Below the pieces are notes generated by a model, which worked only from the letters and a program-made list of their open reading frames with translations, ran no database searches and was not told where the DNA came from. From the NCBI GenBank assembly GCA_015062235.1, contig SUUZ01000004.1:17497-81496 (forward strand): a stretch of 64,000 nucleotides of DNA, read 5' to 3'. Source of the stretch: Alphaproteobacteria bacterium (GTDB taxonomy: Bacteria; Pseudomonadota; Alphaproteobacteria; RF32; CAG-239). Each line of letters begins with the position of its first letter. Positions within the stretch are counted from its first letter, which is position 1. Below are positions 5,758 to 52,512 of this stretch, one piece after another. The translations under genes were made by a program, and so were the position numbers.

Positions 5758-5833
5758 GGGCTCGTAGCTCAGTCGGTAGAGCATTTGACTTTTAATCAAA
5801 GGGTCGGCGGTTCGAACCCGCCCGAGCTCACCA
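5758..5833 (+). tRNA. tRNA-Lys (anticodon UUU)
   Basis: 76-nt cloverleaf GGGCTCG TA GCTC AGTCGGTA GAGC A TTTGA CTTTTAA TCAAA GGGTC GGCGG TTCGAAC CCGCC CGAGCTC A CCA. It has 7-bp acceptor, D, anticodon and T arms, a TTCGAAC T-loop and an encoded CCA. Confidence 0.93.
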
Positions 5834-16890: not shown

Positions 16891-17343
16891 ATGAAAAATA
16901 AACTTTTGGCTGCTAGTGCTTTTGTGTTTTTAGCAACTGCTTGTGCTCCAAACATTAATTCTAATCATTATGCAACTTCTTCCACGGGCGCTGTTGGTCA
17001 AGTTCTCGCTTGTACAGTAGTTAGTGTGCGTCAAGTTAATGTATCGTCTTCAGATTCATCAACAGGTGCTGTTTTGGGTGCTATTGGTGGTGGTGTTGCT
17101 GGTTCAACCATTGGTCATGGGCGTGGTAGTTTACTTGGTGCCTTGGGAGGTGCAGCATTAGGTGGTTTAGCTGGTGAATACGCTCAAGAAGGTCTAAGTC
17201 GTCAGGCTGGTGTTGAATATATTGTAAAATTAGATAATGGAACAATGCGCACCATCACACAAGGAACAGATGTTTATATGCAACCAGGACAAAAATGTTA
17301 TTTATTGTATGGCGATCAATCGCGTATAATTCCTGCCAATTAA
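16891..17343 (+). CDS. glycine-zipper outer-membrane lipoprotein (Rickettsia 17-kDa antigen / SlyB-like)
   Basis: Lipoprotein signal with ATAC lipobox, a Gly-zipper GAVLGAIGGGVAGSTIGHGRGSLLGALGGAALGGLAG, and a C-terminal conserved tail. Confidence 0.75.
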   Translation: MKNKLLAASAFVFLATACAPNINSNHYATSSTGAVGQVLACTVVSVRQVNVSSSDSSTGAVLGAIGGGVAGSTIGHGRGSLLGALGGAALGGLAGEYAQEGLSRQAGVEYIVKLDNGTMRTITQGTDVYMQPGQKCYLLYGDQSRIIPAN

Positions 17344-26416: not shown

Positions 26417-27142
26417 TTATTCCTTTAGTGCTAAAGCCATTTTGTACCACTTACTATCAGGATAGTTATGTCCTAAAACTTTTAATACACCGCTAGCTTC
26501 TTTATTAAGCCCCAAAATAACATAAATTTCTATTTGTCGATAAAGAGCTTCTTCAATTTGTGGAGTTGTTTGATAATTTTCAACTACAGCAGAAAACCTA
26601 TTTAATGCTGAAAGATAGTTTTTTTGGTTTAGATAATAGCGGCCAACGTCCATTTCTTGTCCTGCTAGATGGTCGCGAATAAGAGCCATTTTGCCTTGAG
26701 CATCTTTGGCATATTCTGAATTAGGAAAGCGAACAATAACTTGATTGAAGGCTTCTTCGGCTTTGGCTGTATTGTCTTGATCTTTTTCTGCGCCAACGAT
26801 TTGGTCGTAATAGCACATTCCTTTCATATAATAGGCATAGGCAATATCTTTATTTCCAGGGTGATAGCGAATGAACCTATCAAGTGCTAGGATAGCATCG
26901 TCATATTTTTCATTTTTATAATACGAATAGGCCGCCATAAGTTTAGCTTTGGTTGCCCATTTTGAGTAAGGATGCTCTAGTTCAACTTTTTCAAATGTAG
27001 CTGCAGCTTTAGCCCAAGCGGTTTGATCCATCTCAGCATATCCTTGATTATATAAATCTTCGGCTGTTGGATTTGTAACTTCGGTCGAGGTCGAAGCGCA
27101 AGCGGCTGTAAAAAGTAATAAACCCAAAACAATTTTTTTCAT
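26417..27142 (-). CDS. bamD: outer membrane protein assembly factor BamD (TPR lipoprotein)
   Basis: Lipoprotein signal (LLFTAACAS), TPR repeats, and the conserved position between lpxC and recN. Confidence 0.8.
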   Translation of the reverse strand: MKKIVLGLLLFTAACASTSTEVTNPTAEDLYNQGYAEMDQTAWAKAAATFEKVELEHPYSKWATKAKLMAAYSYYKNEKYDDAILALDRFIRYHPGNKDIAYAYYMKGMCYYDQIVGAEKDQDNTAKAEEAFNQVIVRFPNSEYAKDAQGKMALIRDHLAGQEMDVGRYYLNQKNYLSALNRFSAVVENYQTTPQIEEALYRQIEIYVILGLNKEASGVLKVLGHNYPDSKWYKMALALKE

Positions 27143-27143
27143 T

Positions 27144-28004
27144 TTATTTATCCTTTTGTATTATTTGATAATTTGTGTTATCAGCAAATAATCTTTTTAA
27201 TAGCTGATTATTATGATAATGACCCGTCTTGTAAGCAGTTAGCTTACCAATTATAGGAAAGCCTGCGGTGTACATATCCCCTATTGCATCTAAAACTTTG
27301 TGATTTACACATTCATTTTTAACTCTAAAACCGTCGGGATTTAAGATGGTTTCGCCATCTAGTACAACGGCATTATCTAGGCTTCCGCCTTTGATAAGGC
27401 CAATAGAACGTAGATAATCTATTTGATATTTTTCACAAAAAGTTCGGCAAGGAGCTATTTCTTTAATGAAGATATCCTCAGTAATTGAATTGCAAAATTC
27501 TTGATGACCAACAATTTTTGAAGGAAATTCTATTGTAAAATTAATTTGAAACTCGTCAGCTGGTTCTAGTGATACTTTATTTCCTTTATCATCGGCAAAT
27601 TCAACTTGTTGCAATATTTTGATGTATTTGCGTGGCGTGTTTTGTTTTTTTACGCCTACTTGTTGCAATTTTTGCCAAAATATTGTAGCTGCACCGTCTA
27701 AAATTGGCATTTCAGGGGAATCTATTTCAACAAGCAAATTGTCAACATGCATAACAGATAGAGCTGCCATTAAATGTTCAATAGTTGAAATTGTATTACC
27801 TTTTTTATCTCCCAAACATGTGCAATTTTGTGTATCTACAACATTAGAGTAAAGTGCTTTTAGGGGAATAAAATCATTAATATCTGTACGTTTAAAAACA
27901 ATACCATGATTTTCAGCAGCAGGTTTGAGAACAAGTTTTGAGGTAACTCCTGAATGAAGCCCTACCCCATTAATTATTATTTCATTTGCAATAGTTTGTT
28001 GCAT
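27144..28004 (-). CDS. lpxC: UDP-3-O-acyl-N-acetylglucosamine deacetylase
   Basis: LpxC fold motifs (HTLEHLMAAL-like EHLMAALSV, zinc-binding His/Asp). Start placed at MQQTIANEII; the ORF-track start at 28091 would overlap the RNase P RNA. Confidence 0.9.
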   Translation of the reverse strand: MQQTIANEIIINGVGLHSGVTSKLVLKPAAENHGIVFKRTDINDFIPLKALYSNVVDTQNCTCLGDKKGNTISTIEHLMAALSVMHVDNLLVEIDSPEMPILDGAATIFWQKLQQVGVKKQNTPRKYIKILQQVEFADDKGNKVSLEPADEFQINFTIEFPSKIVGHQEFCNSITEDIFIKEIAPCRTFCEKYQIDYLRSIGLIKGGSLDNAVVLDGETILNPDGFRVKNECVNHKVLDAIGDMYTAGFPIIGKLTAYKTGHYHNNQLLKRLFADNTNYQIIQKDK

Positions 28005-28035
28005 TGTATGCCTTTTTCTACCCATTGTAACAAAC

Positions 28036-28426
28036 AAATAAGACAGCCTATAAGCCGAGTTTTGTAGTTTGGAAACCAAACCGACAGCCATTCATCTTGG
28101 CCAATTGTCACCAATTGGCTCGTCGCGACCTACCTCTGGAGTGGAGAGAGAACGCCCCATGTCATCTGGTTTGTTAAAAAACACCTAGACGCTCCTAACT
28201 TGGTCTTGCATCAGGTAGGGTTTACCTGGACCAGCGATGTTACCACCGCCGCGGTGAGCTCTTACCTCGCCTTTTCATCCTTACCAAACTAAAAAGTTGG
28301 CGGTATATTTCTGTGGCACTTTCCCTTGGGTTTCCCCAGCCAGACGTTATCTGGTACCATGTTCCCTTGATGCTCGGACTTTCCTCACTATAGGCATAAA
28401 GCTATAGCGCGACTGTCCAGCTATCT
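28036..28426 (-). ncRNA. rnpB: RNase P RNA (rnpB), bacterial type A
   Basis: The minus strand carries GGAAAGTCCGAGC (P4 5' strand), ...GGTAAGAGCTCACCG (P10-12 GNRA region), AGATGAATGGCTGTC and ACAAAACTCGGCTTATAGGCTGTC (P4 3' strand / ACAGAA-like). These line up with E. coli M1 RNA, and the region is GC-rich with no ORF. Confidence 0.88.
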
Positions 28427-28547
28427 TATTTGCTAGTTTATAAGAATAAACGCATAGTTTAATGATTGCAAGAGGTTTGTTAGAATTTATAAGCATAAAA
28501 AAAGTTTTGCACCGTATTGGTACAAAACTTTTTTGTCACTTAACAGA

Positions 28548-29312
28548 CTAAGCAATCTTTTTCTGTCTGCGTAGAGATTTTGGTGGTTCGAATGTAGCTT
28601 CCCGCACTCCGACTGGCATTGCCAATGGCGCGGAGAAGAACAATGTTCCACATGCACGGAAAAATGCGAGCACTACGTGAGTTCCGACTGTCTGATCATC
28701 GCCCCAAAAACGAATATAATTACATCCGTATACATCTTTGGGGTTATCAATTCTTAACATAGGTGTCGCCAAGAACTGAATACCACCCCAAAGGGCTGCG
28801 AAAATATTGATCTCACAATACGTCCACTCTTGGATGTCTCCAGTATATTCGTAGACATCACAAATGCCCTCATTGCGAACGAAAGAATAATTATGATTAA
28901 GATACTCTTTCGTCTGTACATAGAACTCTCCACCGATTATATTCTGCACAAGGCAGCTATTCTCGTCCACGCTCAAACCAGCAGCTTCTCGTACTCCGTT
29001 GATAACACTCTCAACATCGGCATTCGTCTTAACTTTATACACACGAATAGGCTGATTTTTGCTACACTTCCACACTCCATGCTTTCTTGCCATTTTTGTT
29101 CCAAGCTCTTTTAGATTGGAAATGTAATAATACGCTCTTCCTACCTCGTTATAAAGTACTCTGGGCACTTTCACTTTTTTACCATTTACAAAGGCTACAA
29201 CCTTACCATCAATATTGGTAATGAAGCCACCTTCATTAGTTACTTCGTCAGAATTTACCCAACGGAAACTTCTCTGATTCTTGTCTGTAAAGACTTTGTT
29301 TAATGTTGCCAT
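28548..29312 (-). CDS. hypothetical protein of foreign composition (255 aa from MATLNK)
   Basis: The ORF is clearly more GC-rich (~44% by eye) than its neighbours (~30%) and has different codon usage. No recognisable family. Flanked by rnpB and a 430-bp AT-rich spacer. Confidence 0.55.
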   Translation of the reverse strand: MATLNKVFTDKNQRSFRWVNSDEVTNEGGFITNIDGKVVAFVNGKKVKVPRVLYNEVGRAYYYISNLKELGTKMARKHGVWKCSKNQPIRVYKVKTNADVESVINGVREAAGLSVDENSCLVQNIIGGEFYVQTKEYLNHNYSFVRNEGICDVYEYTGDIQEWTYCEINIFAALWGGIQFLATPMLRIDNPKDVYGCNYIRFWGDDQTVGTHVVLAFFRACGTLFFSAPLAMPVGVREATFEPPKSLRRQKKIA

Positions 29313-29480
29313 AATTGTAATTTTTTTAATTAATTGATTAATGTTAATTTCAAAAAGCAAAGAGTTCTACTATTTGAAATAGAGCAACAATAACCATAAA
29401 ATGAAGAACAAGCTTCAAATTACAACTATGCAATAACCAATCAAATAATAGAACATAATAACTTTTTATATGAATTTATT

Positions 29481-29500
29481 GTACAGTTTTTTACAATGTT
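29481..29500 (+). repeat. 20-bp direct repeat copy 1 (GTACAGTTTTTTACAATGTT) in the mraZ upstream spacer
   Basis: Second copy at 29565-29584 (19/20 identical). The first copy is embedded in TTGTA-N8-TACAA dyad symmetry. Confidence 0.7.
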
Positions 29501-29564
29501 TTTGTTTTAGTTAATGTGTTGAAAATGCAAATTTATTAATTGTTGCGTAGCGTTGAAAAAAATG

Positions 29565-29584
29565 GTACAGTTTTTTGCAATGTT
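29565..29584 (+). repeat. 20-bp direct repeat copy 2 (GTACAGTTTTTTGCAATGTT)
   Basis: 84 bp downstream of copy 1; candidate operator pair. Confidence 0.7.
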
Positions 29585-29828
29585 GTGTTGTTATATTAAA
29601 AAATTTTAAGATATAAACAGCCTAAAAAAATATTTAAAAAAAGTGCATTTTTTTTGATTTTGCGCAAAGTCTTGCTGTGCTTAAAATACACAAAAACGAA
29701 ACAGAACATTACAAGAACAGTTAAAAAAATACTAAAATTTCCCATTGATTCCCATAAAATCCCGTGTTATACCATATATATAAAATCAAGAAATGAGGAT
29801 TTTGGATTTGCGTAAAACATTTTTATTT

Positions 29829-30278
29829 ATGGATACAGTAGTAAACAAGGTCGATGCAAAAGGCCGTGTTTCTTTGCCTGCTGACTACCGTTCTATAGTA
29901 AAAACCAAAGAATCTGAAATTGTCTGTTATCGCAGCCTTACTGCCCCTTGTATTGAGGGATGTCTGGAAGATTTGCTTGATAAATTGGCATCTGAAATGG
30001 AAGATGCTTTAGACTTTTTTTCTGAAACTCAAGATGATTTGACGAATTTAGTGTTTGGTGATGCCAAGCGCTATTCTTTTGATTCGACTGGTCGGATTAT
30101 GTTGTCGGACAAACTATTGAAACATGCTCAGATTAGCGATGCTGCTGTTTTTGTTGGTAAAGGGCGTAAGTTTCAAATTTGGAATCCTGAGAATTGGGCA
30201 AAAGAAGAGGCACGTATAAGAGCTGAAGTTATGAAAAAAAGACCCTCTATAAGAACAGTTTCAGAGGGGGATAAATAA
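29829..30278 (+). CDS. mraZ: transcriptional regulator MraZ
   Basis: Two MraZ/SpoVT-AbrB-like halves (DAKGRVSLP... and DSTGRIML...). Start chosen at MDTVVNKVDAKGRV; the ORF track begins 12 codons earlier. Confidence 0.8.
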   Translation: MDTVVNKVDAKGRVSLPADYRSIVKTKESEIVCYRSLTAPCIEGCLEDLLDKLASEMEDALDFFSETQDDLTNLVFGDAKRYSFDSTGRIMLSDKLLKHAQISDAAVFVGKGRKFQIWNPENWAKEEARIRAEVMKKRPSIRTVSEGDK

Positions 30279-52311: not shown

Positions 52312-52337
52312 CATTGTCGCATAAGGTTATATTAGAG

Positions 52338-52512
52338 ACTGCGTAGTTCGTAGTTTAAGCAGGTCTTCCGAGCCAACATTACATTTTAGGGAGCTGTCGC
52401 TGAATAGATCGAGGTTTATTTATATGGCACCCACTTATTTGACCCGCGGTTCGTTTCAAGAATGTATATATACGGCTAAACGGTTTCTAGTAATTTTATA
52501 GATATGAACTAC
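52338..52512 (+). ncRNA. ssrS: probable 6S RNA (ssrS)
   Basis: ~175-nt ORF-free, GC-enriched segment directly after zapA (the conserved ssrS location). The ends pair (GUAGUUC/GAACUAC and GUUUAAGC/GGCUAAAC) into a long interrupted hairpin, followed by an intrinsic terminator at 52514-52542. Confidence 0.55.

Follow-up and report, generated by a model that had tools for sequence, protein, structure and literature searches.

The gene between rnpB and mraZ in this stretch of DNA, 64,000 nt from an RF32 alphaproteobacterium (GenBank assembly GCA_015062235.1, contig SUUZ01000004.1, positions 17,497 to 81,496; the whole stretch is called the window here and numbered from its first letter), raises the question of whether a coding sequence (CDS) that stands out by its guanine plus cytosine (GC) content is a recent foreign arrival. 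The gene, which we call X, is a minus-strand open reading frame (ORF) at 28548-29312 that starts with the ATG at 29312; its product is a protein of 254 amino acids (aa; 28.9 kDa, isoelectric point 8.9), not 255 as first counted. The original prediction held that X had been acquired horizontally and recently, possibly from the host or a co-resident organism. We find that X joins a regulatory frame of one kind to a CDS of another, and we think it probable, at roughly 0.68, that X is a functional single-gene unit and a tenant of this site in which the CDS alone was swapped in from a related bacterium.

The mosaic is evident from comparison with the closest relative in which the site is occupied, L026 (related loci are referred to by such handles). 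Nucleotide homology of 76–78% between the window and L026 covers 27002-28534 and 29290-31000 and extends to within 15–25 nt of the stop and start codons of X, placing one breakpoint within 28534-28549 and the other within 29290-29316; inside the CDS identity drops to ~0.5 per 60-nt bin, and the proteins are 44% identical. The ~175 bp upstream of the ATG, which comprise the promoter region and a ~125-nt 5' leader (29313..29490, minus strand), are 65–88% identical to the upstream regions of three units of the kind that we term type-1: L026 lies at the same locus as X, and L027 and L025 lie at unrelated loci. Downstream, a hairpin bordered by an A-run and a T-run (28496..28540, minus strand), which is probably the intrinsic terminator of X, shares homology with the L026 and L025 terminators. 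The CDS belongs to a different set of relatives, group A, which are found in five different contexts (L001/L017, L018, L019 and L020 at 86–89% aa identity, L021/L004 at 72%) and match the window over 28549-29316 alone. At those loci they form sharply bounded units of ~935 bp with a terminator and a distinct leader of their own, the latter containing a conserved hairpin (CCTTTCGGT...ACCGAAAG), and the window shares neither element. Since the promoter, leader and terminator of X have their orthologues in L026, the CDS of X is the only foreign part. A recombination event precise to the CDS is needed whichever combination is ancestral.

The site itself, the slot between mraZ and rnpB, is conserved in place and polymorphic in content. 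The gene order of the window, ftsI-ftsL-rsmH-mraZ, then X, then lpxC-bamD-recN, was recovered by neighbour clustering in 12 GTDB species, with rnpB lying between X and lpxC, ~110–190 bp downstream of X, in 10/10 of the occupied GTDB slots that were scanned. At least two further occupied species beyond the GTDB set (L053/L055 and L056-58) bring the family to the slot of at least 14 related species besides that of the window. We surveyed the slot by walking outward through MraZ homologues (>1200 clusters). Within the species of the window (MraZ 100% identical), 21 of the 22 contigs read, including L009-L011, carry X at 99.35–100% identity and the remaining one, L012, retains its last 86 codons after a partial deletion; all 22 thus hold group A or its remnant, and no alternative type was found within one species. 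At 94% MraZ identity L026 has a type-1 short form, and at 93% the slot of L013-16 is empty. Long forms of 345–348 aa, 24–28% identical to X, occupy the slot of L053/55 and L056-58 (MraZ 88–89%), the slot is empty again in L062, L063 and L064-68 (86–87%), and 11 more species at 75–85% carry type-1 or one of three other long types. The species with the flanks most similar to the window therefore have no X, or have a member only 44% or 24–28% identical, while the nearest relatives of the CDS are found in other species at unrelated loci, which bears out the claim that the CDS is foreign.

In the L013-L016 species, homology to the window (read in L013 and L015) ends at 28503 and restarts at 29557, leaving 28504..29556 without a counterpart. 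A tblastn search of the L013-16 spacer with X found no remnant of the gene, and we dropped the idea of decayed remnants in empty slots (L013-16, L062-L065), having found none. This empty slot is best read as a loss of 28504-29556, because more distant outgroups are occupied. On presence and absence among relatives, a check that had been proposed for X, the answer is split: the gene is missing from L013-16, L062, L063 and L064-68, but other family types fill the slot in at least 14 species.

A partial deletion is seen in the conspecific L012. Its flanks are 98.6–99.5% identical to the window, the segment 28804..29552 is missing, and residues 169–254 of X remain. The event involves a 32-nt direct repeat, ATTGTACAGTTTTTT[A/G]CAATGTT (= GTACAGTTTTTT[A/G]CAATGTT; family D1), present in the window at 29478-29509 and 29562-29593 on the plus strand, 84 bp apart. 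The junction in L012, GGGCTG|CAAAAACATTGTAAAAAACTGTACA|GTTTTTTGCAATG, is the reverse complement of 29481-29505 joined to repeat copy 2, and the fused copies form a near-perfect 32-nt palindrome (L012 3754-3795), which implies inversion plus deletion, or template switching, at the repeat motif. Copy 2 is itself an imperfect palindrome, conserved upstream of mraZ in L013-16, where X is missing, and the motif is also conserved in L026; copy 2 may be an operator. A second, independent remnant occurs at L052 6001-6180, where all that survives of a type-1 gene, outside the mraZ-rnpB slot, is its final 60 codons (93% identical to the L027 copy), again with the 3' end retained as in L012. It is one of ~24 of the 36 GTDB loci (23 intact genes plus this remnant) that lie outside the slot with no dcw gene or rnpB nearby.

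The types found at the slot are deeply diverged, and the family tree is discordant with that of the species and of the flanking housekeeping genes, so that the phylogenetic comparison suggested for X supports a horizontal history. Identity between X proteins shows no correlation with identity between the RecN, RsmH and FtsI proteins of the same genomes (Spearman 0.05–0.10). For example, L049 and L040 are 79% identical in housekeeping proteins and 39% in X, whereas L039 and L040 are 82% identical in the former and 96% in the latter, with ~89% nucleotide identity over X and ~72% in the flanks. The window and L026 share 94% identity in MraZ and 80% in RecN (housekeeping range 74–94%) compared to the 44% noted for X. 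This incongruence implies that the slot has been occupied for a long time or repeatedly, and that many exchanges or losses of its content have taken place.

That X is an outlier in its own neighbourhood is clear. All composition and codon statistics were calculated from the 64-kb window rather than the whole genome, with its 53 ORFs of at least 120 aa as reference (mean GC 0.340, standard deviation 0.031; mean GC at third codon positions, GC3, 0.2145, standard deviation 0.045). With GC 0.413 and GC3 0.388, X has the highest GC3 in the window (z ~3.9) and the joint highest GC; GC at its first and second codon positions (GC1, GC2) is ordinary, so the excess lies in third positions. When synonymous codon choice was scored by leave-one-out likelihood, per codon, X was the most atypical of 49 genes (-1.239 compared to -0.910 +/- 0.063, z -5.2): TTC, CAG and GAG account for 71%, 88% and 60% of the respective choices in X and for 11%, 17% and 18% in the window, and GTG is also strongly over-used. 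X thus falls outside the range of the resident genes, as had been supposed, and it lies where the original prediction placed it, between rnpB (28035-28428, minus strand) and mraZ (29793-30278) with AT-rich spacers of 119 bp (GC 0.277) and 480 bp (GC 0.233) on either side; both of the peptides quoted there are present in the translation. The contrast had been overdrawn, at ~44% against ~30% where we measure ~41% against 34%, and the CGC, GCG and CCG codons reported to be many occur in frame just 2, 3 and 0 times.

Composition does not, however, mark X as a newcomer. Over 38 loci the family has GC of ~0.39–0.54, compared to 0.30–0.50 for the host loci; GC3 of the family member is above the neighbour mean at 31 of 38 loci and is the highest at 24. 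All allele types are outliers in AT-rich hosts (for example, GC3 of X in L026 is 0.476 compared to a neighbour mean of 0.285), and group-A copies that differ from each other by synonymous divergence (dS) of ~1 all have GC3 of 0.38–0.44. High GC3 is thus a family trait, and because it is found whatever the GC of the host, composition cannot date the transfer. Nor was the transfer recent, since dS to the nearest known relative is ~1. The cause of the high GC3 may be exchange via higher-GC members of the family, biased gene conversion at a recombination-prone locus, or selection. Of the proposed horizontal acquisition, then, one part stands, in that the CDS has a horizontal history, while the family and the regulatory frame are native to the slot.

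A eukaryotic host or a giant virus as donor finds no support in the distribution of the family. Every sequence homologue comes from a metagenome-assembled genome (MAG) or metagenome contig, and those that are labelled are nearly all Alphaproteobacteria or Proteobacteria; the sole link to viruses is a weak resemblance in fold to uncharacterised proteins in the BFVD database, one of them from Orpheovirus, a giant virus. We infer that the donor was a related bacterium rather than the host.

The simplest history would therefore run as follows. The family would be a long-term tenant of the slot that separates the mraZ control region from the rnpB promoter; the regulatory frame of X, orthologous to that of L026, would be native; and the CDS alone would have been replaced by recombination with that of a related gut alphaproteobacterium, with crossovers possibly falling in short stretches conserved across the family at the start (~first 24 nt) and end of the CDS. 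The direction and the mechanism of this exchange are our interpretation, and a number of points weigh against it. The swap may have run the other way, with group A ancestral and the CDS of L026 the replaced one. Among the slots read, which are those listed above, none offered a donor with a group-A allele. The conservation of leader and terminator may partly reflect purifying selection instead of orthology, and RecA-type exchange would have little homology to work with in tracts of ~15–25 nt at the ends of the CDS. X lacks a Shine-Dalgarno sequence, and its expression is predicted from sequence; its function is wholly inferred, with no defence, mobility or division domain detected; and the compositional case is confined to 64 kb.

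Among other histories, vertical inheritance of a fast-evolving native gene, with GC3 held up by selection acting on codons or mRNA, or by biased gene conversion, survives best, and we regard it as unlikely. It would account for the presence of the family at the same locus over a wide range of relatives, for the native regulatory flanks, and for GC3 that is high family-wide despite dS of ~1 in several AT-rich hosts, a persistence which argues for an active force and not for a lack of time for amelioration. It is difficult to reconcile with a CDS that is 86–89% identical to copies at other loci and 44% identical to that of L026 at the same locus, in clades that are deeply separated, or with X proteins in L039 and L040 that are far more alike than their housekeeping genes. 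Within types the ratio of non-synonymous to synonymous divergence (dN/dS) is 0.02–0.10, so X is not fast-evolving. In the window pgk, gap, efp and clpB (read from the translations), which as a rule are highly expressed, have GC3 of 0.18–0.23.

Somewhat less probable again is the recent insertion of a foreign mobile cassette into an empty rnpB-mraZ spacer, which was the original prediction. The L013-16 species, among the closest relatives sampled, does lack a gene at the site, codon usage in X is atypical, and group-A copies elsewhere move as a ~935-bp unit from promoter to terminator. There is also a 13-nt inverted repeat near the ends of the unit (28494-28506 and 29460-29472), the only terminal repeat that we found, which is probably a chance product of A/T-run sequence overlapping the tail of the terminator. 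Against an insertion, the flanks of the CDS are orthologous to an occupied slot, that of L026, up to the start and stop codons, and the leader and terminator of the group-A unit are not in the window. The slot is family-occupied in at least 14 other species, some of them much more distant, so the empty slots are more likely to be losses. No integrase, transposase or target-site duplication was found at the window locus, and the dS of ~1 is not that of a recent arrival. The possibility that X travels in a two-gene cassette with a neighbouring gene was rejected, as the neighbours in L001 and L004 are unrelated.

The remaining alternative, that the ORF is spurious or overlies a non-coding feature responsible for the rise in GC, might be entertained because X has no Shine-Dalgarno sequence, database annotation or known domain, but it is refuted by a reading frame kept intact under dN/dS of 0.02–0.10 in more than 35 species, by a confident fold prediction, and by the lack of any credible Rfam match over 28430-29800, where the spacers gave just a chance match to mir-70, and we give it next to no weight.

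X is a real gene under purifying selection. The dN/dS range of 0.02–0.10 was obtained across 12 pairs of family members, with values of 0.066–0.099 for X itself against its group-A homologues, and invariant residues are retained in family alignments across identities of 22–89%, the frame being intact down to 22–30% identity. The family is very small: a word-indexed search of 5.8 billion proteins returned 17 relatives, a profile search that covered 1.84 billion cluster representatives exhaustively returned 28, and a scan of one genome per GTDB species returned 36 loci, each in a separate assembly. A metagenome scan added three short, uninformative contigs. It is an orphan family whose labelled records are almost solely MAGs of Alphaproteobacteria, mostly from animal and human guts (the named sources are roe deer, goat, buffalo, water deer and human), with a single record labelled Eubacteriales in the GTDB scan. 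The hosts probably belong to the RF32 order; a catalogue of the ruminant gut (PMC8199421) describes uncultured Alphaproteobacteria of this order with reduced genomes of ~1.59 Mb.

Family members occur as short forms of ~250 aa and long forms of 338–367 aa. The X protein has zero matches in Pfam, PHROGs, NCBIfam and PADLOC (0 families at E up to 1 with the profiles of PADLOC-DB 2.0), and no homologue was found by tblastn against 50,697 phage records or in plasmid (tblastn) and IMG/VR scans. Searching the long forms and 32 family members against Pfam produced nothing beyond sub-threshold matches to Pox_A31 (PF05771), seen in 9 of the 32 at residues ~124-170, the best of which scores 15 bits (E 0.025), below the gathering threshold of 22.4 bits; X itself does not match. 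A distant relative of 160 aa, P0161, belongs to a 3-member family without names and has one weak match, to a hypothetical protein of a Yersinia phage.

The AlphaFold2 model of X (pLDDT 81, pTM 0.76) is mostly beta, and X is predicted to be a cytoplasmic protein of this kind. No fold match to the model was found in the PDB with Foldseek (best E 0.22, TM ~0.1), and profile searches of the PDB were not significant, with a best E of 0.2 for a 13-sequence profile and no match for a 32-sequence profile. The matches in BFVD are partial and weak, to uncharacterised viral proteins A0A345MMK3 and Orpheovirus A0A2I2L347 (E 4e-4; TM 0.41 normalised by query, 0.61 by target). The X family thus shares with Pox_A31 and these proteins recurrent sub-threshold sequence matches and a partial fold match, but all the Pox_A31 scores lie under the cut-off and the matched proteins are themselves functionally uncharacterised. 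Kinship with MraZ/AbrB-type proteins was considered and rejected (hhalign probability 0.3% against PF02381, no Pfam match).

The regulatory frame around the CDS is informative about how X may be expressed. Whereas the neighbouring genes have a Shine-Dalgarno sequence, X does not. The leader of X (29310-29445, minus strand) has a predicted fold of -31 kcal/mol (z -4.15) in which upstream CAUAGUUGU would pair with ACAAUUAUG and bury the start codon; the same arms were found by a mechanical repeat scan as inverted repeat I1 (29295-29323 / 29417-29445). The helix is kept in 4/4 units with the type-1 frame, with a compensatory change in 2 of 28 pairs, and because these are four close sequences with just two such pairs, the structure is a prediction. 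Translation of X appears, on this model, to be gated by a leader that sequesters the start codon. Such leaders are known from RNA thermometers and from toxin and transposase genes; that of X resembles them in the lack of a Shine-Dalgarno sequence and in an arm predicted to pair with the AUG region in the four units, but it matches no Rfam family.

At the other end of the gene, the arms of the terminator hairpin (28498-28513 / 28519-28534) are 94% complementary, and the DNA folds at -14 kcal/mol (z -4.8). Simple promoter and terminator scans did not rise above shuffled background; the terminator scan missed this hairpin because it has too few G-C pairs. The hairpin probably insulates the promoter of rnpB from X. 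Directly downstream, the rnpB gene for class A RNase P RNA (28035..28428, minus strand; Rfam RF00010, 281 bits) has a putative promoter at 28429..28495 on the minus strand, with TTGCAA at 28471-28466, a 17-nt spacer and TATTCT. The columns of this promoter are invariant in the alignment, its motif TGATTGCAAGA recurs at the empty L062-L065 sites, and it is conserved in species without X. On the other side and divergent from X, mraZ (29793..30278, plus strand; PF02381) is the first gene of the dcw cluster mraZ-rsmH-ftsL-ftsI. Upstream of it three TCCC[A/G] boxes (TGGGA on the other strand) start at 29740, 29750 and 29760 on the plus strand (29740..29764), at an exact 10-bp spacing; they are invariant in L012, L013 and L015 and are present in L062-L065, empty slots included. 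The boxes fit the MraZ operator pattern of Escherichia coli, repeats of TGGGN.

As to function, our tentative proposal, which we hold to be possible but well short of likely, is that X is a dispensable accessory factor with leader-gated translation under diversifying selection between lineages. The most likely functional class would be a role in conflict, itself a doubtful assignment. Stated more narrowly, as an anti-phage defence gene or other conflict gene such as an abortive infection gene or toxin, the idea becomes unlikely. Its attractions are the patchy distribution of the family, the divergent types in one slot, the losses and the deletion within a species, together with translation that is apparently tightly gated. 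Two copies lie beside integrases, one of them also beside AAA_21 and RloB genes, another is near a zeta toxin, and there is the weak fold likeness to uncharacterised viral proteins. An integrase, Rlo-type gene or zeta toxin was, however, near X in just three of the contexts examined, which does not amount to residence in defence islands. Most neighbours outside the slot are housekeeping genes (they include a histidine phosphatase, a class II aminoacyl-tRNA synthetase domain, a GNAT acetyltransferase, an amidohydrolase, a serine dehydratase and a DNA methylase), and essential genes border the slot on both sides. Nuclease, NTPase, TIR, SIR2 and transmembrane features are all missing from X, as are a partner gene and a PADLOC match, and the phage, plasmid and IMG/VR searches yielded no homologue.

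A broader proposal is that, in RF32-type gut Alphaproteobacteria, the mraZ-rnpB slot serves as a dedicated site of exchange for interchangeable, deeply diverged alleles of a protein that lacks a PDB fold match and whose leader gates its translation, with the coding sequences swapped between species at codon boundaries, and that X is an unrecognised conflict or cell-cycle factor (for example in phage exclusion or as a division checkpoint) whose diversity is selected. We consider this less likely still than defence alone.

Slightly less probable again is that X is an accessory factor tied to the dcw cluster and MraZ, or to RNase P RNA. The gene is divergent from mraZ and immediately upstream of rnpB in at least 15 species, and the intergenic region contains the conserved palindromic motif and the MraZ boxes. 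This position is explained equally well by the conserved flanks (rnpB on one side, mraZ and its control region on the other) acting as homology arms. Set against the >1200 clusters of MraZ there are ~28–36 members of the X family, most MraZ-bearing relatives have no member, and the slot is empty in several relatives while ~24 of the 36 GTDB loci lie elsewhere. Moreover rnpB has its own conserved promoter and X its own terminator, and profile comparison shows no likeness of X to MraZ.

Exchange of an accessory gene at a conserved locus is a known kind of phenomenon, of which the mosaic limited to the CDS is an unusually clean instance. Idiomorph-like loci in bacteria include the agr specificity groups and the comC/blp pherotype loci, in which diverged alleles lie between conserved flanks. 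The X slot resembles these in its orthologous flanks and sharp breakpoints, in alleles that cannot be aligned at the nucleotide level (at most 44% aa identity), in an allele tree discordant with the species tree, and in purifying selection within types. It differs in that polymorphism is mostly between species and not within a population, empty slots are common, X also occurs singly at unrelated loci, and there is no signalling, receptor or immunity partner. With ordinary transferred ORFans X has in common its atypical GC3 and codons and its patchy, lineage-restricted distribution; in contrast to them it is foreign in its CDS only, with a native promoter, leader and terminator and no mobility genes, and its atypical composition is a stable trait of the family and not a sign of recent arrival.

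The locus corrects a common shortcut, in that atypical GC3 here marks a family with stable composition and a history of exchange, and it provides a clean case in which the CDS alone was replaced and the native promoter, leader and terminator were kept. It also draws attention to a small uncharacterised family with no fold match in the PDB, under strong purifying selection in the reduced genomes (~1.6 Mb) of an uncultured lineage from the gut, beside the cell-division cluster. If a conflict or cell-cycle role were established for the family, the exchange of alleles between species could be studied at this slot as a tractable natural experiment; on present evidence X is an interesting but functionally anonymous accessory gene.

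Several minor observations concern the surroundings of X and its homologues. In L007 (1-5703) the X homologue adjoins a tRNA gene, beyond which come an integrase and an island containing AAA_21 and RloB-type genes; the homologue lies across the tRNA gene from this island, outside it. The convergent neighbour of the homologue in L001/L017 (6885-7625, minus strand) encodes 246 aa with no Pfam match and an internal repeat, GGGYIFNSG.GFSVLSCS; its GC3 of 0.55 sets it further apart in composition than the X homologue. In three AT-rich relatives the X homologue is surrounded by interspersed repeats of 100–270 bp, 82–94% identical and with terminator-like hairpins (L018 5555-5848; L019 6810-6876 and 8006-8362; L020 4701-4940, 5568-5684, 8751-8845 and 10161-10274), which may be elements resembling miniature inverted-repeat transposable elements. 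Their relevance to X was rejected, as none is in the window.

Within the window, the ORF at 16891-17343 equals X in overall GC (0.413) by way of GC1 0.56 and GC2 0.51, with a normal GC3 of 0.17; its high GC is an effect of amino-acid composition and not of foreign codon usage, and by reading of the translation its N-terminus resembles a lipoprotein signal. The longest ORF for lpxC (27144-28091, 315 aa) runs into rnpB, and as its relatives are called at 282–286 aa the true start is probably the ATG at 28004 (MQQTIANE...). The window also contains a tRNA gene at 5758-5830 and a 6S RNA at 52333-52490 (52 bits), and in L032 a 6S RNA lies near the dcw cluster.

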